From IMG/VR virus record IMGVR_UViG_3300048861_000143, positions 25,078-89,077 of that record: 64,000 nucleotides of DNA. One strand, 5' to 3'. Position 1 is the first letter of the stretch; each line of letters begins with the position of its first letter. This document shows, one piece after another, positions 10,083 to 31,551 of this stretch. This DNA is from a virus. The position numbers and the translations under genes are program-made. The notes under the pieces are model-generated. The model had not been told where the DNA came from, did not search any database, and saw only the letters and a program-made list of their open reading frames with translations.

Positions 10083-11639
10083 TCAGACCGTGACCTGGCC
10101 GCTCTGGAGCGTCTGCCGGGTCACTGTGACGGTCTGGCCGCCTTCCATGTTGATGATGAAGCGCTCGTTGATGGCCTGGTACTGGACCTGAACATCGATC
10201 TGGAAGAAGCCCAGCTTCACGCGCTCTGGCGGGTTGTTCGTGCCGGGGCCGATGCCGCAGACGACCGAGAACGGCAGCCCACCATCATCATAGTCCTGGC
10301 CGAGCATCCTCTGCCCCACGAGGCCCTGCAGGAACGCGCAAACAGTTGCCTTCGCCTGCCGCACGAGGTCGTTATTGATCGGGCGGCCGAGGTAGACGCC
10401 CATGCCCCGGTCGAGGCTCGTGGCGATGAAGTTGGTCAGCCGCGTGTACCAATCTCCGCACACGTCGGCGCTTGAGCTGGAGTTGTGCCCGATGCGGCAG
10501 GTCCACATCGAGAGCCCGCCGCCGCCAGGGTTGGTGATGACGTCGATGCCAGCATTCTGGAGCTGCTGAATTTCAGCGAGGCTGTAGGTCGCGAGCGTGC
10601 TGGCCGACTTCTGAGACCCGGCAATGCCGTAGAGGGCCTTGTTGAGGGCCGACTGCTCCGGCGAGAGGTTCGCGAGCCTGCCGGCGGCGAAGCCCTGGGG
10701 GCTGACGTAGCGGCTCACCTGGTTGAAGGGGTCGTACCACCACAGCCAGTCGCCGAACATCAGCTTGCAGGCATAGGTGTCGAGCCCGGCAGTCTGCTTG
10801 GCTGTGATCGCGTTGGCGATCGTGTCGCCGCTGGGGCCGGTCAGGATGGCTTCCATCGCCTCGGGCCCGGCCAGCGCATCGACTGTCGTCCACTTCGTGG
10901 GGTCGTCCAGATCGGCCGGAACGAGCAGGCTGCATCCCTGGCTCCGCAGAGCATAGATGCCGGTGCGCTGGACAGCATCCACGCCGACGAGCTGCGCGCT
11001 CGTGACGGCTGCGCCGTCAGTGCCGCCGGAGAAGGTGAAGGTCGCCGCGCTCGGCGCCGTCGTGCCCGCGGCCGCGGTGGCAACGATCAGGCTGGACGGG
11101 CCGCGTCGGCCACCAGTCCCCTTGTTGATCGCATTCGCCAGCGCAACCCAGAACGCGTTTCCGGTCCCGACGATGTTGTCGAAGATCTCGGGCTGTCCGC
11201 CCGGCACCCCGACCATCGCCTTCCAGGAGCTCGCCTTCGAGCCAGCCGAGAGGCTGACCTGCAGTGCGTTCCCGGCGGTTCCGGTGTAGCGCGCCGCGAA
11301 GGTGCAGCATGTCGCGACCCCGGTGGAGGACGCGGCCGTGTCGCTGCCGTCGGTGACGCGGACGATCCGGAAGTTGTTGGCGCCCTGCAGCACCGCGACG
11401 GCGACCTGTGTGCCGGCATCGTATTTCCGGGCCACCGGAGAGCCGAAGGTCAGCGCGTAGGACGGCATGTCGCTGACGGTCACCGGCTGGTTCACCGGGC
11501 CCCAGGCCGCGGTCCCAACCACGCCGATGATGTTCGTCGAGGCGCCCGGGATCAGATAGGTCTGCGGCGGAACGATCGTGACGTAGAGATCGGGGACCAA
11601 GTTTGAGGCCGTGTTATACTGGCCTTGGTTCAGGATCAT
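10083..11639 (-). CDS. Tail sheath protein
   Basis: 518 aa; PDLYVTIVPP, GVVGTAAWGPVNQPV, C-terminal sheath domain (YTRLTNFIA...INERFII). Confidence 0.92.
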   Translation of the reverse strand: MILNQGQYNTASNLVPDLYVTIVPPQTYLIPGASTNIIGVVGTAAWGPVNQPVTVSDMPSYALTFGSPVARKYDAGTQVAVAVLQGANNFRIVRVTDGSDTAASSTGVATCCTFAARYTGTAGNALQVSLSAGSKASSWKAMVGVPGGQPEIFDNIVGTGNAFWVALANAINKGTGGRRGPSSLIVATAAAGTTAPSAATFTFSGGTDGAAVTSAQLVGVDAVQRTGIYALRSQGCSLLVPADLDDPTKWTTVDALAGPEAMEAILTGPSGDTIANAITAKQTAGLDTYACKLMFGDWLWWYDPFNQVSRYVSPQGFAAGRLANLSPEQSALNKALYGIAGSQKSASTLATYSLAEIQQLQNAGIDVITNPGGGGLSMWTCRIGHNSSSSADVCGDWYTRLTNFIATSLDRGMGVYLGRPINNDLVRQAKATVCAFLQGLVGQRMLGQDYDDGGLPFSVVCGIGPGTNNPPERVKLGFFQIDVQVQYQAINERFIINMEGGQTVTVTRQTLQSGQVTV

Positions 11640-11857: not shown

Positions 11858-12727
11858 TCAGATCGTGATCTGGAACTCGGTCCCGTCTTCGTTGACGTCC
11901 ATGCCGACGAACAGCACCTCAGGGTGCGTCTCGACGAGGGTGGTGGAGTATTCGACCGTGTATCGAAGATCCCGGCGCCAGGCGCTGGCCTGCTGCGCCT
12001 TGTCGAAAGTCGCGACCGAGTAGTAGCGCAGGTCTCCGAAGGACGAGTCTGGCAGCTGAATGAAGGTCGTCAGCGCGCCGGCTTCATTGGTGAGACCAGC
12101 GAAGCCCGCGTCGACCACGGACATGACTTTGTCCCGGGCCGCTGGCGTGGGCGCCCACCCCATGACCCAGAAGTGCTGCAGCTGTCGCCGGGTCTCGAGC
12201 CACTCCGTCCGGTCGGCAACAACGTGAGCATCGAGCGTCGCTCCGGAAACGGTCACGACGTTCGATGCGACGGCCGCCCCGGGGATCATGACTGCCAGCG
12301 CGGACGCCACGGTCAGGGGGCTGTCGCCGGCCTTGATGCGGTAGGCGTAGGCCGACGGAGGCACTCCTGAGATCGAGACTTTGATGCCGGCTACCTGCCC
12401 CAGATCGGCGTAACCGGTGAAGGTGACGGTGTCTTGCGAGGCGGTTGCCTCAAGTCGGGGCGTGACGGGCGGAGCCGCGTGCCATTGGGGCACGAACTTA
12501 GTCGTGCGCCGAGTGGCGCCGCCGACCGGGAACACGGTCACGGACATGGTGCCTTCGGCGATGTCCTGGTCCAGGGCCGCGGCGATCGGCCAGCCCCGGT
12601 AGACGCGGCACATCACCCCGGTTTTCTGGGACAGGACGGCGGACCCTTCGCGATAGCTCTGTCCGAGGCCGAGCGATCGGGCGGTCTCGCGGACAAGAAC
12701 AGCCTCGACGTCGGAGAGATCGGCCAT
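11858..12727 (-). CDS. Tail completion/terminator-like neck protein
   Basis: 289 aa; position before the sheath. Function assigned from synteny only. Confidence 0.55.
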   Translation of the reverse strand: MADLSDVEAVLVRETARSLGLGQSYREGSAVLSQKTGVMCRVYRGWPIAAALDQDIAEGTMSVTVFPVGGATRRTTKFVPQWHAAPPVTPRLEATASQDTVTFTGYADLGQVAGIKVSISGVPPSAYAYRIKAGDSPLTVASALAVMIPGAAVASNVVTVSGATLDAHVVADRTEWLETRRQLQHFWVMGWAPTPAARDKVMSVVDAGFAGLTNEAGALTTFIQLPDSSFGDLRYYSVATFDKAQQASAWRRDLRYTVEYSTTLVETHPEVLFVGMDVNEDGTEFQITI

Positions 12728-13021
12728 TCAGGCCTCCACCCCGAAAGCGCCGCGGATGTGGCAGTCCCGACCGGTCACCGTCTGCACGTGCAGATCGATG
12801 GTGTACTGGGTGCCGGCAACGCCGCCCGAGACCCATACGACCGCGACCGGACTGGCGAGCACGACAGTTTCAACGGTCGCGCTGCTGGGGGAGATCGTCG
12901 CTGTCGGAGTGCCCAGGACCGCATCGCTGTCACCGAGCCAAGCCGCTAGATCGAAGCCGAACCCATCCTTGTCGGCGGCGCGCTTGTTGTCGAAGACGTA
13001 GACGGGGAGCGCCTTGGACAC
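12728..13021 (-). CDS. Fibre-adaptor-like small beta protein
   Basis: 97 aa; KR.ADKDGFGFDLAAWL...VVWVSGGVAGTQYTIDLHVQTVTGR aligns by eye with the C-terminal domain of 16735-19776. Confidence 0.6.
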   Translation of the reverse strand: MSKALPVYVFDNKRAADKDGFGFDLAAWLGDSDAVLGTPTATISPSSATVETVVLASPVAVVWVSGGVAGTQYTIDLHVQTVTGRDCHIRGAFGVEA

Positions 13022-13120
13022 AGCACAGTCCTATTCAGAAGAGTGGTTTAAGAGCGGATCGCGGGATCGGATCGGCCCTAGCCGCCCCGGCCAGCGGGGC
13101 TTGGCAATCGATAGGCGTCC

Positions 13121-14338
13121 TTATTCGTTCATCAGAAGGGAGAAGTAAGGCTTAGCCCATTCGGCGTAGCCAGTCCCATTGGGATGGAGGGTGTTTGCGT
13201 ATAGCCCGAGCGGGTTGGTTATCTCGTAAGAACCCCAGCGAGCGGAGCCGTCAATGATCACGCAGCCATTGCTCAGGGCAAGCGTCCGTGCCGCTGCGGT
13301 GTATTGGGCTTGCGTTGCAGCAGTTGTCCGGGTGATCGCGGAGGGTGCCGGCGTCACTACCACGCAATCACCCACCGCCTTCGCCGCACTTATGATCGCC
13401 TGCAAGCCCGTGGTATAAGTCGCCACGCTCTCGGAGTTGACCCAGTCGTTAATGCCGAGATCGATGAATGTTACGTCAGGCGTCAAGGCCGCGATCATCA
13501 GCAGCGGAGACCAGGGGAAGCTGCTGTCGTTCCAGTCCGTTACCCTAGAGCCGGACCACCCGGCGTTCATGATGTGAACAACTCCGGTGGACGGGTCTAT
13601 AGCCTCAATAGCAACGACGTAGCAGGGGCCCCCGGATACCCAATTGAGGGAGATGGTGTTGGCTCCCTGACTTGCACTGAAGGTCTGCGAGGCCAATGCA
13701 ACGCTGCCGAAGTTCGTGTTTACGTTCGTCGCCGCGCCGCCGTTGACAGCCACGCTGAATGTCCCGTTACCGCCGTTGGTCGAATACCAGACTTTGAACC
13801 CCGCGTTTGTCCCTCCAGGTGTGAAAACGCTAGGTGTAGTCGCGGTCGTCAGCATGAGGAGTTGAGCACCCGCCGTGGGATGGGTAGCGAAGAATCCCCC
13901 TGACCCGATGGAGAACCTCGGGTCATTGTCCCTTGCATTTTCAAGGGTAGAAACCCCGAGTCCAATTAGATTGTTGTCAGCAGCCGGAAGCCCAGCCCCG
14001 GTCAACATTTGTCCCAAGACGGTCGGGAAGGCATGTATCCGAGCCTGCGAGGTGGTGGCGCTCGCGTAAGCGCCATAAGTGGTGCTGTCCCCGACAAATA
14101 AGAGGCGAGCCGATCCAGTCTGCGCTCGAACTCGCGCCAGAGCGGCGCGGGTTCTCCGGAGATACACCGGGTTCGCGTTCAAGACATAATTGGCCGCCAG
14201 CATGTTGTCGCCCGGGAATACCGTCCCTGACGTTGTTCCCAAAATAGTGGGAGGAAGCTGGGCCGCACGCGACAGCTTCGACAATCCGGCGGAGGCCGCA
14301 AGCGCAGCAGCCCCGGAGATCAGATGGCGACGCTTCAT
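13121..14338 (-). CDS. SGNH/GDSL esterase with twin-arginine-like leader
   Basis: Blocks FVGDSTT, NAGWSG, LGIND, TLHP; N-terminus MKRRHLISGAAALAASAGL. Confidence 0.85.
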   Translation of the reverse strand: MKRRHLISGAAALAASAGLSKLSRAAQLPPTILGTTSGTVFPGDNMLAANYVLNANPVYLRRTRAALARVRAQTGSARLLFVGDSTTYGAYASATTSQARIHAFPTVLGQMLTGAGLPAADNNLIGLGVSTLENARDNDPRFSIGSGGFFATHPTAGAQLLMLTTATTPSVFTPGGTNAGFKVWYSTNGGNGTFSVAVNGGAATNVNTNFGSVALASQTFSASQGANTISLNWVSGGPCYVVAIEAIDPSTGVVHIMNAGWSGSRVTDWNDSSFPWSPLLMIAALTPDVTFIDLGINDWVNSESVATYTTGLQAIISAAKAVGDCVVVTPAPSAITRTTAATQAQYTAAARTLALSNGCVIIDGSARWGSYEITNPLGLYANTLHPNGTGYAEWAKPYFSLLMNE

Positions 14339-14366
14339 CGGTTGGATCTCCTGGCCCGGTCGAGTG

Positions 14367-15737
14367 TCACCGGGGGCGTGTCGCCAGAATTTTGCTCAAC
14401 ACCTGCTGGGCATACACGGCAATGGCCGCAGCCCCGGCATCATTGTAGTGCGGCGGACGGGCACTGCTGTTGTACGCGGATAGAATAGCGGCAGTGTTTG
14501 CCGGATCGCGAACCGCCGCGTCATGATCGACATACAGCCAACCCGAGTTGCGGATGATGGTATTGAGCGCCTGTCGTGCGGTCTCTGCCGATCCGGACAA
14601 AGCCCACGGCTGGGCCGTCGCGAGCACCGGAACAATCCCGCGCCGAACGCACCAATCGCAGAGCGCGAACGCGTTGGCGAGCGAGACGGCATACGGGCCG
14701 GATGTGACCGATGTCGGCACTCCGTCATTAGGGCTTTCCGGCTTGATAATCAGCACATCCGGCCTCAGTACCGGAGCCAGCGTGTATATTTCAGCGTGAA
14801 ATACCGTGGACTTTCTACCCTGGTATCCGCGATTGGCGAATATGACTGGGGTCGTCGGTGTGGATAACGCAGCGCAGGCAATGTGGTAGGGGCTGTCCTG
14901 ATAGGTATCCGTGCCGAACCCCTGGAACAAACTGTCACCCACCGCCATTACGGAAAGACCGCGAGCACGCGAGATGAACTGCATGCCGGAGCTCGCCATA
15001 TAGCTGGTCGTTTGCACCGGGGCTGTGATCGTCCCCGGGGTGGTGGCGGAGTCACCCCCTACATATCCACCCCGCACGATGCGCCCGCTGGCCACGGCAT
15101 CGAAGGCGGTGAAACTGACAGCAGGGAGTGCGCCAGCACCGTAATTGGTCGATGTATAGACACGGATGAACACTAGCGGCAGCGTACCGCCATCCAACCG
15201 GGCAAGCGACTGAACCTTTGTCCAGTCCCCCAGGATTACTGATGGGTTGAGCAGATTGCCGGTGCCGGTCGTTTGTCCCGCTACTCCCGCTGGCTGCGTT
15301 ACGTTGCGCACCGTGCCAGGCAAGGCCGCGTTCGGCCCGAGCGGCGAAGCGTCGCTACCGCCGTTGTTGAAGTAGACCGGAACCCAGAGAGTATTATCAG
15401 CCACTCCCGATGCGTTGGTCGGATTCGCTCCGTCGTTCAAAGTGCTGCTGGGAGCTATGGATACGGCCGTGATAGCCCCGACCGAAGCGGACTCGTTCAA
15501 AAATACTGGACGAACCCAATCGAAAGCGGCTTCGGCCGTGAAGACTCCGCAGATTGTATAGGTCCCCGTGACCTGGATATTGGCCCCGCAAAACGGGATG
15601 CGGGTCTGAACCGATCCGAACGTGTTCGGCCCGAGTGGCGCGGGCGCCGGCGGAAGGCTGGCAGCAGCGGCCAGCTTCGGAAGCCCGGCCGCGATCGCGA
15701 GCCCAGTAGCCCCGGAGATCAGATGGCGACGTTGCAT
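14367..15737 (-). CDS. SGNH/GDSL esterase with twin-arginine-like leader
   Basis: Blocks AVGDSLF, NRGYQG, SPND, PHYN; N-terminus MQRRHLISGATGLAIAAGL. Confidence 0.8.
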   Translation of the reverse strand: MQRRHLISGATGLAIAAGLPKLAAAASLPPAPAPLGPNTFGSVQTRIPFCGANIQVTGTYTICGVFTAEAAFDWVRPVFLNESASVGAITAVSIAPSSTLNDGANPTNASGVADNTLWVPVYFNNGGSDASPLGPNAALPGTVRNVTQPAGVAGQTTGTGNLLNPSVILGDWTKVQSLARLDGGTLPLVFIRVYTSTNYGAGALPAVSFTAFDAVASGRIVRGGYVGGDSATTPGTITAPVQTTSYMASSGMQFISRARGLSVMAVGDSLFQGFGTDTYQDSPYHIACAALSTPTTPVIFANRGYQGRKSTVFHAEIYTLAPVLRPDVLIIKPESPNDGVPTSVTSGPYAVSLANAFALCDWCVRRGIVPVLATAQPWALSGSAETARQALNTIIRNSGWLYVDHDAAVRDPANTAAILSAYNSSARPPHYNDAGAAAIAVYAQQVLSKILATRPR

Positions 15738-16252
15738 CAGTTGTCCCTCACCGCCACCTTGTCGGTGCTGCTGCCAGAGAACACAGACACCCGCCCCTTG
15801 TGCTCATCGCACGCCATGGAGCCGCCCTGGCCGCCGGCTGTGCCGCCCGAAGCGAGCGAGAACACCGTCGGCGACGCGCCCGCGCCATCATCGAAAACCA
15901 CGAGTTGCGCGCCCGCCGACCGGTTCATGATCTGGCAGTTGTGCCGGCCCGGATTTGCGGGAATGGTCGCGATCAGGGTCTGGCCCGCGATCGAGGGCGT
16001 GTAGCTGGGACCAGAGCCGAAGGAGACGCTTTCCTGGTTCGGCGAGTAATCGGTGCCGTTTCCGCCGGCCGTGGTCATCGGCAGACCGTGGATGCTGTCC
16101 ACGCGCTGCGGCTGACTGTTGGTGCCAATGAACCCGGCGACGAAGCCGCCCCAGGTTGCCCCGCTCGCGTCCTTCATCTCGACGACTGCGCTGAGGGCGG
16201 GAACTGCAATGCAAGCCGCCAGAGCGCCAATCAGGAGGGATTTGCTGGTCAT
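15737..16252 (-). CDS. Hypothetical protein with signal-peptide-like N-terminus
   Basis: MTSKSLLIGALAACIAVPALSA...; start overlaps the stop of the upstream gene (ATGA). Confidence 0.6.
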   Translation of the reverse strand: MTSKSLLIGALAACIAVPALSAVVEMKDASGATWGGFVAGFIGTNSQPQRVDSIHGLPMTTAGGNGTDYSPNQESVSFGSGPSYTPSIAGQTLIATIPANPGRHNCQIMNRSAGAQLVVFDDGAGASPTVFSLASGGTAGGQGGSMACDEHKGRVSVFSGSSTDKVAVRDN

Positions 16253-16731
16253 GCGACTTCTCCAGACATCAGAGCCACAGCGGAGGCGGTTTTCTGGAAT
16301 GGGCCGCTCGACGAAAAGACCAGGACGGCGCCGTTCGTCATGGCGAGTGGCGGGTCGAACCGGACGTCGATGGTCTGGGGCTGCGATGCCTGGAACTGCC
16401 ACGCCTTGACGGGCGAAACCGCGCCATCGGCGGGGATCGCCGTAGCGTCCAGAAGCATGAACCAGCCCGTATCGGTGGCATTCAGGTTGACCGCGAACAC
16501 AAGGCATGCGCTGGCCTTCATCACGAGCCCGGAGGAGATCGCGGTATTGGCGACAGGCGCGACCGGATCGCGGTTCTGCACCGGAAGCCGGTTCGTCGGC
16601 GTGACCGGGCCGCCATTCACTCGCGGCGTGCTCTGCAACGAGACGTTTCCGCCCAGGTCAGCAGTAGCGTTGAATGGTTTCGAACCCGAGGGAGTTACCA
16701 GGGATATCGTCGTCGTTGTGTCATTTGACAT
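16249..16731 (-). CDS. Hypothetical beta-rich structural protein
   Basis: 160 aa; FMLLDATAIPADGAVSP...FDPPLAMTNGAVLVFSSSGPFQKT; tight operon spacing. Confidence 0.6.
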   Translation of the reverse strand: MSNDTTTTISLVTPSGSKPFNATADLGGNVSLQSTPRVNGGPVTPTNRLPVQNRDPVAPVANTAISSGLVMKASACLVFAVNLNATDTGWFMLLDATAIPADGAVSPVKAWQFQASQPQTIDVRFDPPLAMTNGAVLVFSSSGPFQKTASAVALMSGEVA

Positions 16732-16734
16732 CTG

Positions 16735-19700
16735 CTAGAAACCCGACACGAGTGCGATGTAGCCGCTGTTGAGCGCCTGAGAGAAATCAGCGCCTGGAGG
16801 CCAGAAAAGGGATGGGCCATAGTCGGTGGATGGCGACGCCGCGGCGGTCTGGCCGGTTGCGCTGCTGACCTCGATCCCCACTAGCCATTCGAAGGTTCGC
16901 CCGCCCGTGGTGCTGGCATCCAGCTTCACCGTGTAGCTGCGCCCGGGAACTCCCCCAGACAGCCACGCGACTACACGAGTGCCGTTCAGCGCCACCGAGA
17001 CAGGCTGAAGTTCGCCGCTTCCCGACGGCGCGATAGAGATCGAGAGATTTGAAATATCATCGCCTGCATCGATGAGTGGCGCTGAGATTTCGAGCTCGTA
17101 GTCGAGAACCTCCGTTGGCCGCTTCTTAGGCCACCACGCTACGGTCGCGGCCAGCGGCGATGCTTGGGCCGGTACCGTTATGAGCCGGGACATCGTCAAT
17201 GCCAGATCACTCCCATCAGGCGGCAAGCAACTCAGGTCGTGAGCGAGGCTGCGTGTGGATCTTTGGGCGGGAAGCCCAACAACGACGAACCGTGCCGGCG
17301 GCACGGTCATGGCTGTTCGGCTGAGAGGTTGAACCTGCACTAGCCGCGCCAGAGGCACTGACAGAGCTGTTCGGCGGAGATGGCCAACCTGCACTTCCCG
17401 CAAAAGCGGAGCGACAAGTACCTGTTGGGTAGCGGTGGCTCCGAACTGACCAAGGCTGGCCTCAGCCGCGATCGCGTTCGAGGGCTGCTGAACCGACAGG
17501 CCGGCGCCGATCACGACCTTGCCGGCGGCGGCTACGCCCTGATTTGATTGGCGGACGCTGAGCGCGAGCCCGGAGAAGACCTTCCCCAGGACTGACGGAG
17601 CGTTGCCGTCCTGAGAGACCGAGATGTGGCCGCCAATCAGGACTTCGGCGGTGGCAGAGGACGCATTGTCCTGCTGGACCGCCGTCAGACGGGCTTCTGA
17701 TATTGGGCCGCCGGCAGCCGAGAGCGCCTGGGCGTCCTGGCTGATTGCGAGGGGGCCGAAGTCGGTCGAGTAATCGGCGGCGAAGGGTCTGGCGGTAACC
17801 CGCCCCTCGATCGCGGAGGCCGCTGAGGCGGATAGGGTCTGACCGGCCTGCTGAGCCGCACCGTTTCCGGCGACGATCGGCTGTCCGGATGCCGACAGAG
17901 ACTGCTGGGGTTGAGCGAGAGCTCCGGAGCCGGAGACTAGGCCGCCCGCACTCCCCTGCACCCCCTGGGACGCCTGACTGGCCGCCAAGGCGACCGAGAT
18001 GGGCGCCGAGCCTGCGGCGGAAAGTGTGTTCGGCCCCTGAGTGGTCGCCAGCGACAGGGCCATGATGGGCCCGGCCGATGCCGCTACTTGCTGCGGCTCC
18101 TGTTGGGTAGCGAGACTGCCGCGGACCCCGAGAACGCCGGATCCGGCGAAGGTGTGGTCGGCCTGGCTCTGGATGAGCCTGGCGCCGGCCACGATGCTTA
18201 CGCCCAGCGCGTTCCGCTGATCGTCCTGGGTGGCGCTGAGCCCCCCAGAGGCAACCACCGACCCAGTGCCCGCCAAGACCTGGGGGCCCTGCGTCGCGGC
18301 CAGCGGCGCTTGCCATCTCGAGATGGCAGAGGCCGAGAGCGCCTGATCAACCTGTATGAACCCGGAGGGGCCGAAGTCGGTCGAATAATCAGGTGAGAAA
18401 GGGGTCCCGGACGCTACCAGGACGGTAGCGTGCGCTGCCAGCTGAGACGCCTGCCCGGCCGCCAGCGCACCGCCCAGGACGACCCCGCCTGTAGCGTTGA
18501 CGGTCTGCGCGTCCTGCACGATGGCAGCGGAGCCTCGCAGACCCACGGCGGACGAGGTGGCCGCAGTATTCGGGGCCTGAGAGACAGAAACCGCGCCCCT
18601 GACCCGGACAGAAACTGCCGTCGATGCAGCGTTGTCGGACTGGAGCGCCGCGAGATGCCCGACCGAGGTTACGCCCCCCGCCGCCGATAGTACCTGATCG
18701 AACTGGACGATGACCGCCGAGGCCGCCCACCCTGCGACAGCCGACGCAGACACTGAGTTGTCAGGCTGGAGCGACGCCAGCGTCGCGTTCCAACTCGCGA
18801 CGGCTGCGGCCGATAGCACCTGATCAGACTGGCTGAGTGCCGAGGCTGAGGGGCCAAAGTCGGTCGAGTAATCGGAGGAGAAGGGGCTGGCGGTGACGCG
18901 CCCCTCGATCGAGAGAGTAGCAGTCGCCGTTAGGGTTTGGTTGGCCTGAGCGGCCGTGACATGCACGCCCGTCGAGGAAATCCCGGCCGCCGTTAGGGCC
19001 TGATCGGCCTGAGCTGCGGTGACATGCCCACTGACCGTGGAACGTGCGGCAGCCGCTAGGGTTTGGCTGGCCTGAGATGCAGTGACGGTGCCTACTGCAA
19101 GCCCCGAACCACCGGTCGCGGATATGGTCTGCCCGGCTTGAGCGACGGCGACGGACCCGCGCACCACGGAACCGGCGGCCGAGGACAGGGTCTGGCCCTG
19201 CTGAGCTGCGGTGAGAGGCCCGCTCACCGTGGAGCTTGCGGCAGCCGCCAGGGTCTGTCCCGCCTGAGTGGCTGCGAGGACGCCCCGCGCTACGGGGCCG
19301 GCAGCGGCCGCTACGGTTTGGCCCGGCTGAGTGGCCGCGAGGACGCCCCGCGCTAGGGTGACGGCAGCGGCCGCTACGGTTTGGCCGGCTTGATTGGTGG
19401 TTACGCTCCCTCGTACCGAAGAAGTGGCGGAGGCGGTTAGGGTCTGGCCCTCCTGGGCGGCAGCGATGCCTCCGCGCACCGCGGGACCGGCAGCAGCCGC
19501 CAGGGTCTGGCCCGGCTGAGTGGCCGCGAGGCCCGCGCGCGACACGGGGCCGGCAGCGGCCGCTACGGTCTGGCCCGGCTGAGTGGCCGTGACGCTCCCT
19601 GAGATCCTAGAAACAGCAGCGGCCGCTACGGTTTGGCCGGCTTGATTGGTGGCTACGCTCCCTCGTACCGAAGAACTGGCGGAGGCGGTTAGGGTCTGGC

Positions 19701-19776
19701 CGGCCTGCGACACAGCCACAGCTGCGGTGACAGCAGCCGACGCGCTCTCGATGGACAGGCCATAGGCATAGATCAT
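16735..19776 (-). CDS. 1013-aa Ala/Ser/Gln repeat fibre/scaffold with PFxxDYSTDFGP motifs and C-terminal adaptor domain
   Basis: Dozens of ~15-aa xTQxGQTLxAxA repeats; three PFxxDYSTDFGP copies; ends in an adaptor-like domain and DFSQALNSGYIALV. Confidence 0.75.
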   Translation of the reverse strand: MIYAYGLSIESASAAVTAAVAVSQAGQTLTASASSSVRGSVATNQAGQTVAAAAVSRISGSVTATQPGQTVAAAAGPVSRAGLAATQPGQTLAAAAGPAVRGGIAAAQEGQTLTASATSSVRGSVTTNQAGQTVAAAAVTLARGVLAATQPGQTVAAAAGPVARGVLAATQAGQTLAAAASSTVSGPLTAAQQGQTLSSAAGSVVRGSVAVAQAGQTISATGGSGLAVGTVTASQASQTLAAAARSTVSGHVTAAQADQALTAAGISSTGVHVTAAQANQTLTATATLSIEGRVTASPFSSDYSTDFGPSASALSQSDQVLSAAAVASWNATLASLQPDNSVSASAVAGWAASAVIVQFDQVLSAAGGVTSVGHLAALQSDNAASTAVSVRVRGAVSVSQAPNTAATSSAVGLRGSAAIVQDAQTVNATGGVVLGGALAAGQASQLAAHATVLVASGTPFSPDYSTDFGPSGFIQVDQALSASAISRWQAPLAATQGPQVLAGTGSVVASGGLSATQDDQRNALGVSIVAGARLIQSQADHTFAGSGVLGVRGSLATQQEPQQVAASAGPIMALSLATTQGPNTLSAAGSAPISVALAASQASQGVQGSAGGLVSGSGALAQPQQSLSASGQPIVAGNGAAQQAGQTLSASAASAIEGRVTARPFAADYSTDFGPLAISQDAQALSAAGGPISEARLTAVQQDNASSATAEVLIGGHISVSQDGNAPSVLGKVFSGLALSVRQSNQGVAAAGKVVIGAGLSVQQPSNAIAAEASLGQFGATATQQVLVAPLLREVQVGHLRRTALSVPLARLVQVQPLSRTAMTVPPARFVVVGLPAQRSTRSLAHDLSCLPPDGSDLALTMSRLITVPAQASPLAATVAWWPKKRPTEVLDYELEISAPLIDAGDDISNLSISIAPSGSGELQPVSVALNGTRVVAWLSGGVPGRSYTVKLDASTTGGRTFEWLVGIEVSSATGQTAAASPSTDYGPSLFWPPGADFSQALNSGYIALVSGF
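19364..19701. repeat. Near-identical ~85-bp duplication, 252 bp apart, inside the repeat protein
   Basis: 19364-19449 vs 19616-19701 (GCAGCGGCCGCTACGGTTTGGCCGGCTTGATTGGTGG...) differ at about 2 positions. Confidence 0.85.
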
Positions 19777-19792
19777 GGCCTACTCCAGGCGG

Positions 19793-20122
19793 CTACATCC
19801 GCAGCAGTTTCCAATCGAAGCTTCTGGCGACACCGGAAATCTGCTTGAGCGTCACCCTGATGCTCTGATCGCTCGGCTGCGGGGGCGATGCGATCACGAG
19901 CGTCGGTGGCAGCGCGGGGCCGACCGAGGTCTTCCAGGTCACCTCAAGCGTGCCGGCGGCGAGCGTCATCGTGTAGATCCGCAGCTCGAGCACATCGCCT
20001 AGGGCGAGGTTGTTGCAGCGGACTTGGAAATAGTAGGTCGCGTTGGTGGTGTCGGTGGCGAGGGTGAACTCAGTCCCGATCGTCGCGGTCTGGCTGCCTG
20101 ATGCGCTAACGGACCATGTCAC
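19793..20122 (-). CDS. Hypothetical structural protein
   Basis: 109 aa, beta-rich, coupled to its neighbours. Confidence 0.6.
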   Translation of the reverse strand: MTWSVSASGSQTATIGTEFTLATDTTNATYYFQVRCNNLALGDVLELRIYTMTLAAGTLEVTWKTSVGPALPPTLVIASPPQPSDQSIRVTLKQISGVARSFDWKLLRM

Positions 20123-20970
20123 ATTCTGACTCCGTAAAACGTAGCGCCGAGGATGCGATCGGGCGAGGTATTGGTCGCGGACTGAGCGCGTACCGCAATG
20201 CGGGTCCCAGCCCTGATCGGCATCGGGATGTAGGGCGTGATCATCGGCAGGGTTTGAACGGTGCCGCCGTAGAAGTCGCCCTGCGTGTAGAAATTGGGCA
20301 GGACCACCTTCTCGGATCCGCCCGCGCCCGCGCCTATGTCGACGAGGAAGTCGATGGCGCCAGTCGTGCCGTCCGTGCGATTTTGGCAGTCGAAGGCCAC
20401 GAAGAACCCGGCGATATCAGCCGTGAGCGAGGCCGCTAGTTGCGTCCACGCGCCCTTGGTGTTCGCCGTTGCGCCCGGATCAAACGCCGTTCCGACGTTC
20501 GTCGCGGAGATGAACCCGTAGGTGTCCACCATAGACGGTGCACCAGCCATGCCCCCGCGATCGTCGAAGATCGTGACCCTGCACCTATCGCCCCACCACG
20601 CCATATCAGACGATTGCCTGACAGACACGCGCGACCCAGCCCTGATGGCTAGGGGGATCATCAGCGACACGCCGTATCCGTTGCTGCCGTGGATCAGAAG
20701 GTTCTGCACCACGGCAACCTCGCTTCCGCTAGGTCCGACGCCGATGTCGAAGGCATAGGACATGCCACCGCTGCTGCTCCCGCCCCCCTTCCGCAAATCG
20801 ACCATGACCCAGGAAGAGTCGCAGCCAGTCGCAGACACCACCTCCGTCCACGGGCCCTTGGTAAAGGCCGTATCTGAGGGTGCGATCCCGACAGTGCCGG
20901 ATGAGGCGAGGAGTGAACCAAGGTCTTGCGACTGGCCAATCTGCGGTCCGAAATTCCAGCCGCCGGCCAT
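20119..20970 (-). CDS. Hypothetical protein of two tandem homologous domains
   Basis: TKGPWTEVV/TKGAWTQLA; FDIGVGPSGSE/VDIGAGAGGSE; IPLAIRAGSRVSVR/IPMPIRAGTRIAVR. Confidence 0.7.
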   Translation of the reverse strand: MAGGWNFGPQIGQSQDLGSLLASSGTVGIAPSDTAFTKGPWTEVVSATGCDSSWVMVDLRKGGGSSSGGMSYAFDIGVGPSGSEVAVVQNLLIHGSNGYGVSLMIPLAIRAGSRVSVRQSSDMAWWGDRCRVTIFDDRGGMAGAPSMVDTYGFISATNVGTAFDPGATANTKGAWTQLAASLTADIAGFFVAFDCQNRTDGTTGAIDFLVDIGAGAGGSEKVVLPNFYTQGDFYGGTVQTLPMITPYIPMPIRAGTRIAVRAQSATNTSPDRILGATFYGVRM

Positions 20971-20971
20971 G

Positions 20972-21373
20972 TCAGGATGCTCCGATGATTGCCGCCCGGT
21001 CCGAGGTCACGAGGTTGAGGGACACCAAATAGGCGATGCCCTGCTGCACGATCGGCTCGGAGAGGTTGACCGTGGCTGCGGTCATGATCGTCGTGAGATA
21101 CTGGCGCACAACAGGGTCGGCACTGGCCTCGATCCCAGCATATTCCGTCGGCGTGAACCGTTGGATGAACTGCCACGTGTTGATGATCGCGGGCTTTGCA
21201 GGAGGGGCGACAAAGGCCCTGCTCGCCACATCCCAGACCTGACCAGCCGGATTGCCAGTGAGCGTCTGAGCCGTGTATCCAGCGGCGGCCAGCGCCTCAG
21301 CATCGGCGATGACGGTTCCGGTCGATACCAGTGCACCAGCCGCATCCACGATGGCGTACCAGGTATCGGTCAT
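20972..21373 (-). CDS. Fibre assembly chaperone-like protein
   Basis: 133 aa; QFIQRFTPTEYAGI...VTSDRAAII C-terminus resembles tail-fibre assembly proteins. Confidence 0.5.
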   Translation of the reverse strand: MTDTWYAIVDAAGALVSTGTVIADAEALAAAGYTAQTLTGNPAGQVWDVASRAFVAPPAKPAIINTWQFIQRFTPTEYAGIEASADPVVRQYLTTIMTAATVNLSEPIVQQGIAYLVSLNLVTSDRAAIIGAS

Positions 21374-21756
21374 CAGGCATTCCCGGCTGTGACCGCGAAG
21401 CTCGTCACCTGAACGGTCTGACCCGAAGCGATGTTGGTGTTATTCAGCACCAAATCGGTCGTGCAGTTTCCTTGGATGTGACAGACGGCGCTACCGTCGT
21501 AAATCCGGAAGGAAGCCGCGATGCCAGCCGCCGCGGCATTCGCCTGCCACGTGCCGCTCAGGGCTGTTGCGCCTCCTGAGCTCGTCAGGAATGTCGATGG
21601 AAGGGGGATCGTGCAAAGGAGCCCGGTCGGGTCCGCCGAGGCGCAGTTTGCGGGCTCTGCGCCCGAGAAGATCTTGAGGACGCCGGACGTGCCGACAGTC
21701 GCCTGCAGCTGCGCGACCTGGTTGGTGCGCAGGGTCGTGCCATACTGAAAAGCCAT
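21373..21756 (-). CDS. Conserved phage structural protein
   Basis: 127 aa; LKIFSGAEPANC...LVLNNTNIASGQTVQVTSFAVTAGNA pattern familiar from phage virion proteins. Confidence 0.6.
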   Translation of the reverse strand: MAFQYGTTLRTNQVAQLQATVGTSGVLKIFSGAEPANCASADPTGLLCTIPLPSTFLTSSGGATALSGTWQANAAAAGIAASFRIYDGSAVCHIQGNCTTDLVLNNTNIASGQTVQVTSFAVTAGNA

Positions 21757-21805: not shown

Positions 21806-22444
21806 TCAGGCGCCGGTGTAAGCCGCGGTCAGGCGCCATCCGAGGTCGGTTCGCTCTGGCCCGGAGATCGTCCAGCAGCGGTTCATGTCGTCGTAGACGC
21901 GGTCAAAGGGGCGGAGGACCACGCCGGGCACCGCCGGGACGAGGATGGCCACCCATGGCGCTCGAGAGTCGCCCGGAAGATCCGCCGCGGTGCGCTCGCC
22001 CTTCGTCCCCTGCAAGATGCTGCAGGGCCAGCCCGACATGAGGACTTCTTCGTCCGTTCGGTTGTCCCCGCCGTAGTAGCTCGGGCCCGCGGCAGCCGCA
22101 GACGGTCGCCGGAACTCGGCAACCTGATTGCAGGAGACGCACAGCGGGGGCTTGTTCGGCTCCATGCCGGCGACGAACCATGTGCCCTGATCGGCAATCA
22201 GGTAGTCGCCACGCATGACGTCGGTTGCGTCGAAGAGCCCGTAGTAGGCCGGGTTCGCGTATTTGCCGGGGGCCTTGTAGGAGAAGGTCGGATCGACGTC
22301 GAAGTCGGCCTGAAGGGTGCCGATCCGGTTCGAGAGCGCGTTCAGCGGGTCGGTCGGGCGATAATGTGCGAAGGGAGCCCCCAGGAACCGGGCGGCGATG
22401 CCGTAGCCCCGATTGACCTTGGATTGAATCCCCTGCCTGTTCAC
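21806..22444 (-). CDS. Head closure / head-tail joining protein
   Basis: 212 aa; MNRQGIQSKVNRGYGIAARFLG, LMSGWPCSIL; family recognised loosely, supported by synteny. Confidence 0.6.
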   Translation of the reverse strand: MNRQGIQSKVNRGYGIAARFLGAPFAHYRPTDPLNALSNRIGTLQADFDVDPTFSYKAPGKYANPAYYGLFDATDVMRGDYLIADQGTWFVAGMEPNKPPLCVSCNQVAEFRRPSAAAAGPSYYGGDNRTDEEVLMSGWPCSILQGTKGERTAADLPGDSRAPWVAILVPAVPGVVLRPFDRVYDDMNRCWTISGPERTDLGWRLTAAYTGA

Positions 22445-25900: not shown

Positions 25901-27860
25901 AGTATGTCCCGCCGCTCGCCCTCGAGAAAGTGATGCTCGGATCGAGAGCGGGTTGCGTCAGGTCGAAGTCTAGCGCAACGTCCGACACGTTCGGGTTGGT
26001 GACGAGCGAAAGCTCGGTAGCGGATAGAGCTCGGGGCCAGTAGCGGATGCGGCGGACGTAGCCATTCATAGGCGACCCTGTGTTGTTGCCAACACGCAGG
26101 GTCGTTACACCCGCAAGCAGCCCTTGAGAGTTGGCGCCCGAGACTACCGCGCCGCCATTTAGGCACACGGCAACAGTCGCAGCCTGGAACACCGCTCCCA
26201 TCTTGATCGTGGAGTTTACGGTTGCGGCGCCTGTGGTAGCAGATCCGCCAACAGTGCCGTTTACCTGCGGGAATGCCGCAACCGTGCCAACTGCTTGGTT
26301 GATGTATTGGACGTAACGGCTCGAGGCGACCCCATTGTCAACCTGATACGCCACCTGATTTGCGCCCGGCAGGATGCCCTCGAAGGAACCTTCCCAGGTA
26401 AACGAAGCGGGCACCCCCTGGATGAACCACGGCGTCGCCGCAGTGCTCGCCATCTCCGCCGCCCGCGTGCTGGCCGCCGGAGCGCCGGCCGTTGGCAGGA
26501 TCAGCGAGGTTGCGAACGCGCCAAGCTCGAGCTGCGGGGCGCCGATACGGAGGGTGAAATCGACCGTAACGCCCGACGCATAGCTGAAATAGATGTAGCT
26601 GAAGGCATAGGCGGTTGCTGCATTGTTGAATGTGCGCGTCGCCACAACACGCTGCGTCGCCAGGGGCGCTGCGGTTGGAACGAACGGAACATCAGTGGCT
26701 ATAAGCCCATTGCCGGAAACGTCCCGCTCGAATATCCGGAGCAGCGGATTGATGTTGGCGGCGCTGCCTCCGACCACCCTCACATATGCCGATCCGGTCC
26801 ATATCTGGCCGGAGACAGCCGGCACCTGGGTATTCCCCTCAAAGGTGCATATCGTAATGCCGAGCGTGCCCGTCGTGGTGCCGCTATAGCGGAAGTCCAC
26901 ATAAGGCACGCCGCTCTCGGTTCCGGTCCCGACAATCTGGCGAGACAGTCCATCGCCGTTCGAGTTGCCGGTGTAAAAGGTCGGCAGGGTTCCCGGCGAT
27001 CCGGCTACCGCGCCCTCCATGCGGGGATTGCGGATCTGGTTCGTCCGCTGCTCCTCGATCAGGAGCCCGAGCGGACTCGCTGCAACCGTGGCGATGGAGC
27101 CGGAGGTTGGGATAAAGGCCGTTGCCTGATAGCCGCGCTCAAGCTGAGGCTGCGAGATCCGAAGGGTGAAATCAACGACGGCCCCGGAAGCGCAGCCCCA
27201 GCGGAATATCGGCTGAACGTATGCGGCGCTCGCGGCGGTTGTCGTCGCGGTCGTCACGAACTGAGTATCCACGCCGGTTGGCGAGATCACCACGGAATGG
27301 CTTGCAACCAGCGCGACGGAGGCCGAGCGCTCGGCTATATCCTGGGATAGCGTCCCGGACAGGACGCCCGCAACTACCTGGACATTGACGCCAAGTGTCC
27401 AGGCTTGGCCCTGCGCGCCCGGGATGACATTGCCCTGCTCCGGCGAGAGGAAGGCTGTGGAGTTCCCAATAGTGGCGCTGGCCGTCCCGCTGAGGCGTAT
27501 GTCGAAATACGATCGCCCCTGCGCCGTGGTGCCGGTGCCGACGACGGTATAGCCGATGCCAGATCCCGGGGAGAATGCGGCCCAATTGGTCGGGACAACG
27601 CCGGCCCCGCCGCCCTGCATCGTCGAGTTCCGGACCCAGTTCGTCCGGTTGCTCGGCGCCGGACCGTAGTCGATCCGCGGCACGTTGTTCGCTGCGATCT
27701 GCAGGGTGCCGGTCGCATCGAAATAGCTCGCGCCGCTTGCGCGGGTGAACGCGATGCGCGGATCCACCGTCCCGCTGAGGAAGTCCAGCGTCAGAGACTG
27801 ACGCGACTGCCACGAGGTTAGTATGCCTGCGGACCTATGCGCCGCCAGCGAAGGCATCAT
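22974..27860 (-). CDS. Head spike fibre-type protein, three repeated modules (~1628 aa)
   Basis: 3x LD..DPRI.F.RASG.SYFD.TGTL..A.N.PR.DY, 5x RTN.IRN domains, 3x R.RYWPRALS.TEL (LamG-like); start moved to MMPSL. Confidence 0.8.
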   Translation of the reverse strand: MMPSLAAHRSAGILTSWQSRQSLTLDFLSGTVDPRIAFTRASGASYFDATGTLQIAANNVPRIDYGPAPSNRTNWVRNSTMQGGGAGVVPTNWAAFSPGSGIGYTVVGTGTTAQGRSYFDIRLSGTASATIGNSTAFLSPEQGNVIPGAQGQAWTLGVNVQVVAGVLSGTLSQDIAERSASVALVASHSVVISPTGVDTQFVTTATTTAASAAYVQPIFRWGCASGAVVDFTLRISQPQLERGYQATAFIPTSGSIATVAASPLGLLIEEQRTNQIRNPRMEGAVAGSPGTLPTFYTGNSNGDGLSRQIVGTGTESGVPYVDFRYSGTTTGTLGITICTFEGNTQVPAVSGQIWTGSAYVRVVGGSAANINPLLRIFERDVSGNGLIATDVPFVPTAAPLATQRVVATRTFNNAATAYAFSYIYFSYASGVTVDFTLRIGAPQLELGAFATSLILPTAGAPAASTRAAEMASTAATPWFIQGVPASFTWEGSFEGILPGANQVAYQVDNGVASSRYVQYINQAVGTVAAFPQVNGTVGGSATTGAATVNSTIKMGAVFQAATVAVCLNGGAVVSGANSQGLLAGVTTLRVGNNTGSPMNGYVRRIRYWPRALSATELSLVTNPNVSDVALDFDLTQPALDPSITFSRASGGTYFDATGTLKTAANNAPRIDYGPTPAGRTNWIRNSTLQGVGAGTLPTNWAASPAMGTAGFGVTMTQTGFGIENGIPYIEVNIAGTATNTFGLYVRFDTVAPYAGNSVLTLSSYARLISGTLNVTPSLRFDDNAAGAANGSALAPTTAALDTQRFSMTYTPNAGATTVSVGYRFGVTSGAVINATFRVGSPQLERGFEATPFIPTSGSVVTLGATALGLLIEEQRTNAIRNPRAEGAVAGSPGTSPTNWGQGTAQTSIATATEQGMTCADVRFASASVMSAATFLFEAVNAVAASATQVWSGSIYAKLAAGSIANLTDIELTLRFYDASQTFLAQTWTIFTPSSTLARVAITATAPASTAFVALGLRFNTSAAADFTIRVGGPQLELGAFPTSLILPAAGTPAVATRAADQAYVPTSAGSWFNPAEGAFCADFGTTRTPSSSVPIGMSDGTFGNSLYFVGNGLAAIGENASAGVNTGAVVLGDVLNRQAASYGSGTMRASGNGSAATSASMNDGPYPWISRLSIGGAPWGTGAEIGGHMRRVRCWPRALSATELPIVTSLNAQDTTLDLDLTSSPLDPRIAFTRASGASYFDRTGTLQSAVANQPRFDYDPATLAARGLLVEEQRTNSIRNPRGEGAVAGTPGTAPTNWGGTNVVSSGLSASILGTGSESGIPYIDVRIWGTPTITNTGFAVYLFEQAGAIASAASQAWTHSVYLRLMAGSLAGFNNVISRIRQYDSGLVAIGGDVSVALTPTNAPLATQRYTVSLASAAANVAFVMPWMSYGVTSGVPVDITLRIGAPQLEQGAFATSVILPPAGSPGVATRSGELAAMPLGSWFNQSASSVVVSAMIPQSLPGALLGGLALLDDGTTANRIILRNQGTTVLNAAASAAGTPTSSAPAGNFTPGVPFKAGMVAAASAISAAFNGGAVGAISGTLPTSLTTLRLGQNSVNTSLENGYLSRLRYWPRALSNTELQQVTT

Positions 27861-28273
27861 GTCAGGTCGCCCGATACAATCCACTCATCGACGGCGCGCT
27901 GCCTCAGCGACACCGACGAATATTGAGCGCGGGTCGTCAGAGTGGCCGACGGAGTCCGAAGCGTAACGCCCGCTGCGGGTACGATCGTCACTTGGCCTGC
28001 ACCGTATTGGCAGACCTCAAGCACAGTCCCCACATCGAACGGGACGCTGGAGTTCTGTGGAACTGTGACCGTGACAGCGGTCGCCGAGTTCATGTCGACC
28101 GCGCACACCCGATCTGTCAGGCCCAGCGTGTAATTTGCGGTCTGGGTGTTGATCTGAAGAAGCGCCGTGCTCAGAACCAGGTTCCGCATAGTCTGCGGAG
28201 TGATCGAACCAGCAGGCTGGCCATCAGCGAAAGAGGCCAACAGCGCCGCGATCGGCTTTGCCGAGTCTGCCAT
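27857..28273 (-). CDS. Short fibre-tip domain protein
   Basis: 138 aa; TANYTLGLTD...VPFDVGTVLEVCQYGAGQVTI...RAQYSSVSL...WIVSGDL, a domain usually found at fibre C-termini. Confidence 0.65.
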   Translation of the reverse strand: MADSAKPIAALLASFADGQPAGSITPQTMRNLVLSTALLQINTQTANYTLGLTDRVCAVDMNSATAVTVTVPQNSSVPFDVGTVLEVCQYGAGQVTIVPAAGVTLRTPSATLTTRAQYSSVSLRQRAVDEWIVSGDLT

Positions 28274-28303
28274 GTGAAATGTCCGGTCTTGGGCTGGAGT
28301 GAG

Positions 28304-28393
28304 TTAGGGCCCGAAGTCAGGGCTATAATCAGCAGTGAATGGGTTCGGTCTGGCGGTGATGAACCGCCAGATGACAAGGCCTAGGCTTATCAT
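28304..28393 (-). CDS. 29-aa micro-ORF MISLGLVIWRFITARPNPFTADYSPDFGP
   Basis: ATG 9 nt after the spike-base stop; ends in the same motif repeated in the 1013-aa protein. Below the ORF-track cutoff. Confidence 0.7.
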   Translation of the reverse strand: MISLGLVIWRFITARPNPFTADYSPDFGP

Positions 28394-30591: not shown

Positions 30592-31551
30592 TCAGATCCC
30601 GTCAACGTAGCGGAACGCGCCGGGGCGACGAATGTCGACGCCACCGAAGCGGAAGATGCCAGGGACTTCCCACAGCATCGGGCCAACGTGCCACGGGGTC
30701 GGGAGGAAGCGGTATGGCATCGGCAGATGCATCTTCACCACCGTCGGATCCTTGCGGTACGCGACGAGGCGAGAGGTCGCGCCGGAGCCGGCCGTGTCGA
30801 GGCCGCGGATGGCCTTGATCGTGAGGCGCTGGCCGGTTTCCGCCGTGTAGACGTTCTTCTCCTGCATCCAGTCGAGGATCGTCTTCTCGCTCAGGTTGTG
30901 CAGGCGAGTCGTCGCGACATACGACCAAACGTTGAGGCCGAGCAGAACGGTGTCGGCCATTTCAACGGTTGCCGACCCGGTCCACACGCCGGTCAGCGTG
31001 TTGTTGACGTCCGAGAGGATCTGGTCAGGGGTCTTCGTCGACCAAGTCGTCGTGCTGCCCGTGCCGGTCGCCGGAGCGGTCGAGGTGGTCACCGTCGAGT
31101 TGTTCAGCAGGCCCTGGTAGCCGACCTTGCTGTCGCCGAAGAGAGCCGCCTGGTCGATGAACTTCTCCGCCGCGAGCCGCGCATAGCGCGCCTTGTCGTC
31201 GGTGAGGTTGCGGCCCAGGAGGGCGCCCTGCGACAGCTCTTCGATGTCGTAGCGGTAGCCGATACCGGCCATCCGCACGGACGTCTCGAACTTGTTGTAG
31301 TTGACGTCGGCGTGCTGCATGTCCTGCGCACCGCCGGCGAACCACGCCGCAGACCCGGCGCCATCGGTCGAGAAGTAGGTGACCGACGGGATCCAGGGGT
31401 TGGCCGAGGTGTCAATCGGGATCAGGCCCGGGTAACGGATCTCGGGGTATTTCACCACGTACACCGACTTCTCGATGTGCGTGAGCTGTGAAATCAGGAA
31501 GGCCTCAGCCTGCTGGGCATCCAGCATGCGGGACGCGTCGTAAACGTTCAT
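30592..31551 (-). CDS. Major capsid protein (DUF2184/HK97-fold)
   Basis: 319 aa; FLISQLTHIE, GIGYRYDIEEL, VPGIFRFGGVDIRRPGA. Confidence 0.92.
   Translation of the reverse strand: MNVYDASRMLDAQQAEAFLISQLTHIEKSVYVVKYPEIRYPGLIPIDTSANPWIPSVTYFSTDGAGSAAWFAGGAQDMQHADVNYNKFETSVRMAGIGYRYDIEELSQGALLGRNLTDDKARYARLAAEKFIDQAALFGDSKVGYQGLLNNSTVTTSTAPATGTGSTTTWSTKTPDQILSDVNNTLTGVWTGSATVEMADTVLLGLNVWSYVATTRLHNLSEKTILDWMQEKNVYTAETGQRLTIKAIRGLDTAGSGATSRLVAYRKDPTVVKMHLPMPYRFLPTPWHVGPMLWEVPGIFRFGGVDIRRPGAFRYVDGI

Follow-up and report, generated by a model that had tools for sequence, protein, structure and literature searches.

The gene considered here raises the question of how a very long, repetitive protein might be held on a phage particle, and what it might carry there. 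It lies in a 64,000-nucleotide window, bases 25078-89077 of the 149.8-kb IMG/VR record IMGVR_UViG_3300048861_000143, which comes from an uncultured soil phage and has an estimated completeness of 97%. The open reading frame (ORF) at 16735..19776 of this window (minus strand) encodes a product of 1013 residues, P0001, in which a repeat shaft is followed by anchor strands and by an adaptor unit of the Gp77 type; throughout, P-numbers denote proteins and L-numbers viral loci. Judged by its sequence, P0001 is a new fusion, in which an undescribed shaft of 21-residue repeats is joined to a complete Gp77-type adaptor unit. The initial annotation had taken this ORF for a gene encoding a long fibre that terminates in an adaptor domain, and both points are supported: the gene is genuine, with a Shine-Dalgarno-like GGAG ~7 nt upstream of the minus-strand ATG at 19776, and the terminal domain belongs by sequence and by fold to the Gp77 adaptor unit. 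The public gene call for P0001 covers 743 residues only, starting from an internal GTG at residue 271, and omits the 13 cleanest repeat units.

Residues 885-963 of P0001 (16888..17124, minus strand) form an immunoglobulin (Ig)-like, Gp77-type fibre-tail adaptor domain. This region matches the Pfam family PF23148 with an expectation value (E) of 3e-16 and 60.1 bits, against a gathering score of 27, and P0001 matches PDB chain 8jou_D, which is gp77 of phage GP4, at E 5e-8. The AlphaFold2 model of the C-terminal unit has a predicted local distance difference test score (pLDDT) of 86 overall, with ~95 in the Ig domain and 60-68 in the last 20 residues, and the best Foldseek match of this model is 8jou_B, with a template modelling (TM) score of 0.84 relative to the target, a root mean square deviation of 1.9 Å over 88 columns and 33% identity, followed by the Bas63 connector 9mt4_G. 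The window also encodes a stand-alone Gp77-type Ig protein of 97 residues, without a tail (12728..13021, minus strand), which matches PF23148 at E 2e-13 and 51.2 bits. Homology between the product of this gene and the end of P0001 had been proposed and is confirmed, as both are members of PF23148 and the two domains are 30% identical over 79 residues (E 2e-7).

An exhaustive HMMER search over 1.84 billion representative proteins returned 821 matches in two classes, namely large proteins bearing the 21-residue repeat and proteins of ~120-310 residues that span residues 860-1013 of P0001. The alignment of the latter, adaptor class has four parts: it opens at the N-terminus with an RT[IL]x[IV]P strand, continues through the Ig domain to a conserved PSxGFGxPxxW tail, and often closes with ...NSGYIALxxGF. 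P0001 holds the complete four-part unit. Its Ig domain is preceded by a linker (17164..17421, minus strand) of five 9-residue RxxxxVxxP strand units (approximately residues 792-836) and an SRLITVP strand (864-870) that opens the adaptor unit; strands like SRLITVP also begin the stand-alone adaptor proteins, in the form RT[IL]x[IV]P, and end the 21-residue-repeat proteins P0020 and P0055. Behind the Ig domain comes a tail typical of the family (residues 964-1013; 16738..16887, minus strand), comprising PSTDYGPSLFW and a terminal helix ...NSGYIALVSGF, which is conserved in stand-alone homologues. The PSTDYGP within this tail (STDYGP at 16813-16830, or 16813-16833 with the leading Pro) had been counted as a degenerate copy of the motif found in the shaft. 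Because P0001 carries the whole adaptor unit of the stand-alone family, it is instead the conserved PSxGFGxPxxW tail found behind the Ig domain in stand-alone adaptors of ~150 residues; the ten-residue block covering STDYGPSLFW is modelled with a mean pLDDT of 97. The ~150-residue form of the adaptor, consisting of Ig domain and tail, is widespread in metagenomes and undescribed, and no second protein joining the 21-residue repeat to the adaptor unit was present among the 150 best of the 821 matches. It is very probable that the fibre is anchored through its Gp77 unit. Multiplication of the unit was seen elsewhere, in that P0004, a metagenomic protein of 451 residues, contains three tandem Gp77-type units, and three copies lie within 2.7 kb in L087 and in L088.

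Ahead of this unit, residues 24-784 (17425..19707, minus strand) consist of approximately 34 units of the 21-residue repeat, as delimited by a 63-bp period, the spacing of Q..Q anchors and a unit profile. The period had been described as ~15 residues, which is wrong: Tandem Repeats Finder gives 63 bp, and the Q..Q anchors are spaced by 21 residues or multiples of 21 from residue 24 to approximately residue 784. Residues 24-297 (18886-19707) hold 13 clean units, and approximately 21 further, degenerate ones follow that remain in register to around residue 784; the unit consensus is QAGQTLAAAAgSsVRGsVAAa. A higher-order duplication of four units, or 84 residues, is also evident from Tandem Repeats Finder and codon comparison (residues 26-109 versus 110-193; 19198..19701, minus strand), with a 252-bp period detected across 19241-19701 in 1.8 copies at 87% matches. 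The duplication had been thought recent. That a four-unit copy exists is upheld, with 81-87% identity between the copies, but it is not very recent, because without gaps only 205 of 252 nt are identical and the codon differences comprise 13 synonymous and 21 non-synonymous changes.

No model for the 21-residue repeat exists in Pfam, PHROG or NCBIfam, and a search of the Atlas with the shaft was uninformative. P0001 shares with many metagenomic proteins the feature that defines a family of Q..QTL repeat fibres, units with the consensus QAxQTLxAxG...VxGxL. Its repeats are 38% identical to those of P0003 across 291 residues, and dozens of the 150 listed metagenomic matches (of 821) carry the repeat; this family, too, is widespread in metagenomes and undescribed. 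LamG domains lie upstream of a C-terminal 21-residue-repeat shaft in P0003, P0007 and P0008, P0020 has a non-repeat N-terminal region of ~250 residues without a Pfam match, and many relatives finish in a short strand, such as RVxVxP, QARVMVMA or RVVRIP. Because of these upstream LamG heads and short terminal strands, the C-terminus looks like the attached end in this family and the N-terminus like the distal end. The ending ...QARV[ML]VMA is shared by P0003, P0011, P0018, P0027, P0030, P0050, P0054, P0070 and P0115, and is probably an attachment peptide. P0001 itself has no distal or receptor-binding head domain. The shaft resembles the triple beta-spiral shafts of adenovirus and reovirus in being slender, in its short two-strand repeats and in having small or hydrophobic residues at alternate positions, but the repeat there is of ~15 residues, in contrast to the 21 residues (63 bp) of P0001, and there is no sequence relation.

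Between the 21-residue units of the shaft sit three copies of a 12-residue peptide, PFxxDYSTDFGP: PFSSDYSTDFGP at residues 298-309 (18850..18885, minus strand), PFSPDYSTDFGP at residues 459-470 (18367..18402, minus strand) and PFAADYSTDFGP at residues 664-675 (17752..17787, minus strand). These exact peptides had been noticed in the initial annotation, and they are present within one base of the positions it gave. Calculated from composition, the probability of the shared 8-mer DYSTDFGP is 6e-12 per site. The three copies differ in synonymous codons (TAC/TAT, TTT/TTC, CCC/CCT), and the sequences flanking them have diverged. Aromatic residues are absent between residues 6 and 298 of P0001, and 9 of the 19 aromatic residues within residues 1-790 fall inside the three copies.

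When the whole 149.8-kb genome was scanned with a relaxed pattern in six frames and without a limit on ORF length, only four matches were found, three of them in P0001. The fourth lies at the C-terminus of a 29-codon ORF, MISLGLVIWRFITARPNPFTADYSPDFGP followed by a stop codon (28304..28393, minus strand), situated between a 106-residue gene and a 138-residue knob-like gene in a putative head-spike region. This copy uses AGC instead of TCG for Ser and is identical to the fibre copies at 23-26 of 36 nt; the difference in codons therefore implies that it is the peptide which is conserved, rather than a recent copy of the DNA. The setting of the 29-codon ORF, flanked by a putative gene for the spike base and by a knob-like one, recalls the head spike of RcGTA, with its GhsA base and GhsB fibre. 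The ORF and the knob-like gene (27857-28393) share the same frame, with one TAA stop and nine sense codons between them. The motif was also considered as a usual junction before the 138-residue knob domain (27857-28273), and this was rejected: Gordonia phage proteins carry the knob as a fused C-terminal domain, and these fused homologues have no motif before it.

Variants of the motif occur in other proteins. Among the repeat-bearing relatives, P0020 has at least eight copies of [ND]PF[SA]xDF[SA]xDFG between its repeats, irregularly spaced and each aromatic at every fourth residue, and P0055 has one variant just ahead of its repeats. On proteins of other kinds, L137 encodes a gpI-like baseplate wedge protein with two adjacent variants at its C-terminal end, placed behind APPPA and ending in ...APPPADPFTADFSSDFGGGTGQTITTTNPFSSAFNSQFG before the stop codon. 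This protein is 41% identical to the product of the window ORF at 841-1632, which is without the 130-residue extension that bears the variants. In L134 a variant forms the N-terminal end of a protein, MTDNPFAKDFSIDFGPLAAPPPDEPTLP..., and is followed by a Pro-rich linker and a gp6-like connector domain; the GTG start of this gene overlaps the upstream stop codon. A docking tag is favoured because the peptide is found at free ends, behind Pro-rich linkers, on unrelated virion proteins, a distribution that is hard to understand for a building block of the shaft.

The nearest known counterparts of P0001 are collar proteins of phages with solved structures. The head-to-tail adaptor of GP4, a dodecamer, is ringed by 15 copies of the 93-residue Ig-like gp77, through which three sets of fibres are attached (PMC11445570). 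Bas63, a myophage, has twelve Ig-like collar proteins located between the adaptor and the head-completion protein, and the N-terminal rope of each is wrapped by whisker dimers "such as beads on a string", while the rope of GP4 is a separate protein holding five Fiber-1 dimers (PMC12609058). The nozzle-rope of A1002 ends in an Ig-like domain and has 11 docking sites, where dimers of 147- and 171-residue proteins bind via beta-strand augmentation; its 268 residues serve 11 dimers, or ~24 residues per dimer (PMC13730344). Ropes on Ig-like collar domains are thus known to hold 2, 5 or 11 fibre dimers (PMC12609058, PMC13730344).

By analogy, the collar-rope fibres of GP4, Bas63 and A1002 are a closer precedent for P0001 than the cellulosome, to which the initial annotation had compared it. 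The likeness to a cellulosome scaffoldin is one of logic only, in that several docking points are spaced along a single long protein. Pfam detects neither cohesin nor dockerin, finding nothing but Gp77 in P0001 and nothing but GDSL lipase domains in two neighbouring esterases, and in the present case the scaffold would bear the peptide and the partner the socket. The C-terminal Ig domain of P0001, in contrast, is a member of the same family as GP4 gp77 (PF23148; 8JOU) by sequence and fold, the 97-residue gene at 12728-13021 is of the same size and type as gp77, and Gp77-type genes are located beside fibre genes, as in the case of Bcep22 gp63. As in Bas63, a long N-terminal extension precedes an Ig-like collar domain, and the ~24 residues of rope per dimer in A1002 are near the 21-residue period of P0001, whose gene is likewise followed by genes for proteins of 160 and 171 residues. 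The differences are also considerable. P0001 is a 1013-residue fusion, in which the domain lies behind an 860-residue extension and ahead of a 50-residue tail, whereas gp77 has 93 residues; GP4 is a podophage, whereas the phage of P0001 is contractile-tailed. The extension of P0001 is ~17 times longer than that of Bas63 and repeats regularly in sequence, the bead proteins of these phages (Fiber I gp80, whisker gp5, gp40/gp41) had no detected homologue here, and discrete 12-residue tags have no described counterpart in collar-rope fibres.

Where on the particle such a fibre would sit depends on which comparison is followed. The solved structures, taken together with the position of the present gene, point to the neck. 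Synteny in relatives points instead to the baseplate fibre module for the adaptor family: the order of genes there is a gpI-like protein, a 417-residue fibre, a small protein, the Gp77-plus-tail adaptor and a large tailspike, and in 13 of 29 loci a distance of 1.5-2.3 kb separates the gpI-like gene from the adaptor downstream of it. In L145, L152 and L166 (at ~8.0-8.8 kb of these loci), and in L155 and L091, the adaptor directly precedes large tailspike genes whose products start MPTIDELPAA..., an N-terminus that is absent from the present 149.8-kb genome. Several of these adaptors carry short repeats at the C-terminus, TDQNGNPVLT among them, that might act as small docking ropes. The gpI-like wedge protein of L091 (L091:1575-3041) has an insertion of ~250 residues resembling the fibre/LamG-like modules of the 1636-residue protein of the window (...GLLLQEPAGANQVRNPR...).

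That the shaft motif is a portable docking tag has, in our estimation, an even chance of being correct, and we hold it at that level because the cases of L134 and L137 are not based on statistics. Scanning viral contigs with a relaxed DNA pattern returned 12 matches, which is about the number expected by chance on a rough estimate; most are clearly spurious, and L134 and L137 are distinguished by their context only. Several further points also weigh against a tag. The connector call in L134 (E 1e-3, 19.6 bits) is below the Pfam cut-off of 21.2, and the 29-codon ORF with the fourth copy is a predicted one only. Exact or near-exact DNA patterns of the motif gave no match in viral contigs, two antisense chance matches only in metagenome contigs and four chance matches only in reference genomes; a word-based protein search around the first copy, among shorter proteins, returned nothing. 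A partner family co-occurring with the motif had been anticipated, and none was found in our searches; in 43 viral loci, none of the ORFs within 10 kb of Gp77-type genes bears the motif, a result that also removes the tail-less Gp77 protein as a candidate for a general socket, though in the present phage it may still be one. The motif regions give only weak alignments to the adaptor profile (E 1.8 and 21). Nor does modelling help, as the AlphaFold2 monomer of residues 213-520 has two short strands per unit and places the motifs in its lowest-confidence coil, at a pLDDT of 44.5 that is too low to tell an exposed motif from a buried one or a rope from an oligomeric shaft. The lack of a partner is also what would be expected if the motifs were structural parts of the shaft that bind nothing, such as aromatic/acidic knots setting the register of an oligomer, hinges, or D-x-S-x-D metal-binding sites. 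The motifs do fall between the units of the repeat array, the shaft, otherwise of Ala, Ser, Gly and Val, has no aromatic clusters besides them, and the many internal, irregularly spaced copies in P0020 would fit such a role, being like a second type of repeat. We regard a purely structural role as somewhat unlikely nonetheless, as the same peptide, written in other codons, ends the separate 29-codon ORF, variants occupy free termini behind Pro-rich linkers on wedge and connector-like proteins that have no 21-residue repeats, and P0003 has the same repeats without any motif.

The precedents suggest a different division of labour, in which P0001 would be a giant rope as in GP4, Bas63 and A1002, each 21-residue unit would dock one dimer of a small protein by beta-strand augmentation, and the motifs would serve only as punctuation of the rope or as sites that recruit a different protein. 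The bead would be the product of the next gene downstream, ORF160 (16249..16731, minus strand), and perhaps also that of ORF171 (15737..16252, minus strand), which has a Sec-type leader. The number of residues per dimer in A1002 is consistent with this, as is the order of rope, 147-residue and 171-residue genes there compared with P0001, ORF160 and ORF171 here, and the shaft does not fold as a monomer in the low-confidence model described above. The ORF160 family (~150-165 residues, ending FSGEVA) recurs near Gp77-type genes, as in L086 and L107, and both the ORF160 homologue P0163 and the Gp77-plus-tail protein P0017 are recorded on NCBI contigs 1829 nt long, which are probably identical. In L107 a single protein joins an N-terminal part like that of ORF171 to an ORF160-like C-terminal domain. 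Yet no solved structure, by PDB sequence and profile search, and no PHROG or NCBIfam family matches ORF160 in sequence, the ESM Atlas giving an unnamed viral family only; Sec-type signal peptides on the ORF160-like proteins of L086 and L107 do not suit a virion bead, and other 21-residue-repeat proteins bear LamG heads of their own, like ordinary fibres. We consider a rope of this kind unlikely. Far less probable still is that the motifs bind glycans of the host surface by aromatic stacking and Asp hydrogen bonds, making the fibre a multivalent, low-affinity adhesin. The lack of a head on the fibre and the many aromatic and acidic residues of the motif could suggest such a function, but a 12-residue peptide is small for a glycan site, and the host would be out of reach for a tag that lies on the putative head-spike plug peptide or at the N-terminal end of the connector-like protein of L134.

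Returning to the docking-tag reading, the initial annotation had envisaged repeated docking stations for enzymes or adhesins along the fibre. The logic of such stations is partly supported, but the comparison with scaffoldin is not, and no partner was identified by the searches made here. Enzyme partners in particular find no support, since the neighbouring SGNH esterases carry export-type leaders and share no docking module. Tat- or Sec-type leaders are found on both of these esterases and on ORF171, all downstream of P0001, and Sec-type leaders occur also on the ORF160-like proteins of L086 and L107, on the small protein at the same position in L155 and on an esterase-like neighbour in L086. 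From their predicted leaders, these esterases and small proteins look like exported proteins rather than enzymes docked on the virion. Small proteins with Sec signals often adjoin Gp77-type genes (window 15737-16731; L107:9026-9556; L086:12931-13467; L155:5578-6018).

The genes around P0001 form part of a minus-strand structural module for a contractile tail carried by the window, which includes the major head protein gene (30592-31551, minus strand), a maturation protease and the tail sheath gene (10083-11639, minus strand). Among 80 relatives, a homologue of ORF212 is directly followed by a homologue of ORF289 in 78 loci, and then by the sheath gene in 72. In the window approximately 9 kb are inserted between ORF212 (21806-22444) and ORF289 (11858-12727), which are adjacent in the related loci. 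The insert (12728-21756) holds ORF127, the DUF4376-like ORF133, ORF283, ORF109, P0001, ORF160, ORF171, the two esterases and the 97-residue Gp77 gene. ORF283 (20119-20970), for which no family match was found, begins MAGGWNFGPQ, resembling half of the tag, and seems to be a tandem duplicate of one beta-rich domain, with ...P[LM][AP]IRAG[ST]R[VI][SA]VR at the end of both copies.

We propose that P0001 would be a long, thin virion fibre, in which the last 150 residues, comprising the RxxxVP strand, the Ig-like domain and the tail, are the Gp77 unit and would anchor the protein to the particle. The first 780 residues, with their approximately 34 two-strand beta repeats of 21 residues, would form a shaft or rope, and the three PFxxDYSTDFGP peptides would be copies of a portable docking tag that recruit a partner protein, so that one fibre may display several copies of it. 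A more far-reaching version, to which we give little chance, is that a single 12-mer serves as a universal plug. The same free protein, whether a lectin-type fibre, a knob or a small bead, would then be held on capsid vertices via the 29-residue peptide and three times on the fibre, while the 21-residue units string dozens of ORF160 dimers, the whole being a modular display scaffold with a dockerin-like tag common to head and tail.

The host range of a phage depends on the way in which its particle is fitted with receptor-binding and enzyme modules, and collar-rope fibres that hold strings of small proteins have been described only between 2023 and 2026. If our proposal is correct, P0001 extends the collar-rope principle to a very long scaffold of regular repeats on a contractile-tailed phage, and a short, transferable peptide tag is common to several unrelated structural proteins. 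Identification of such a tag together with its socket would explain how appendages are swapped and multiplied, and the pair could serve to hang chosen proteins on phage particles.

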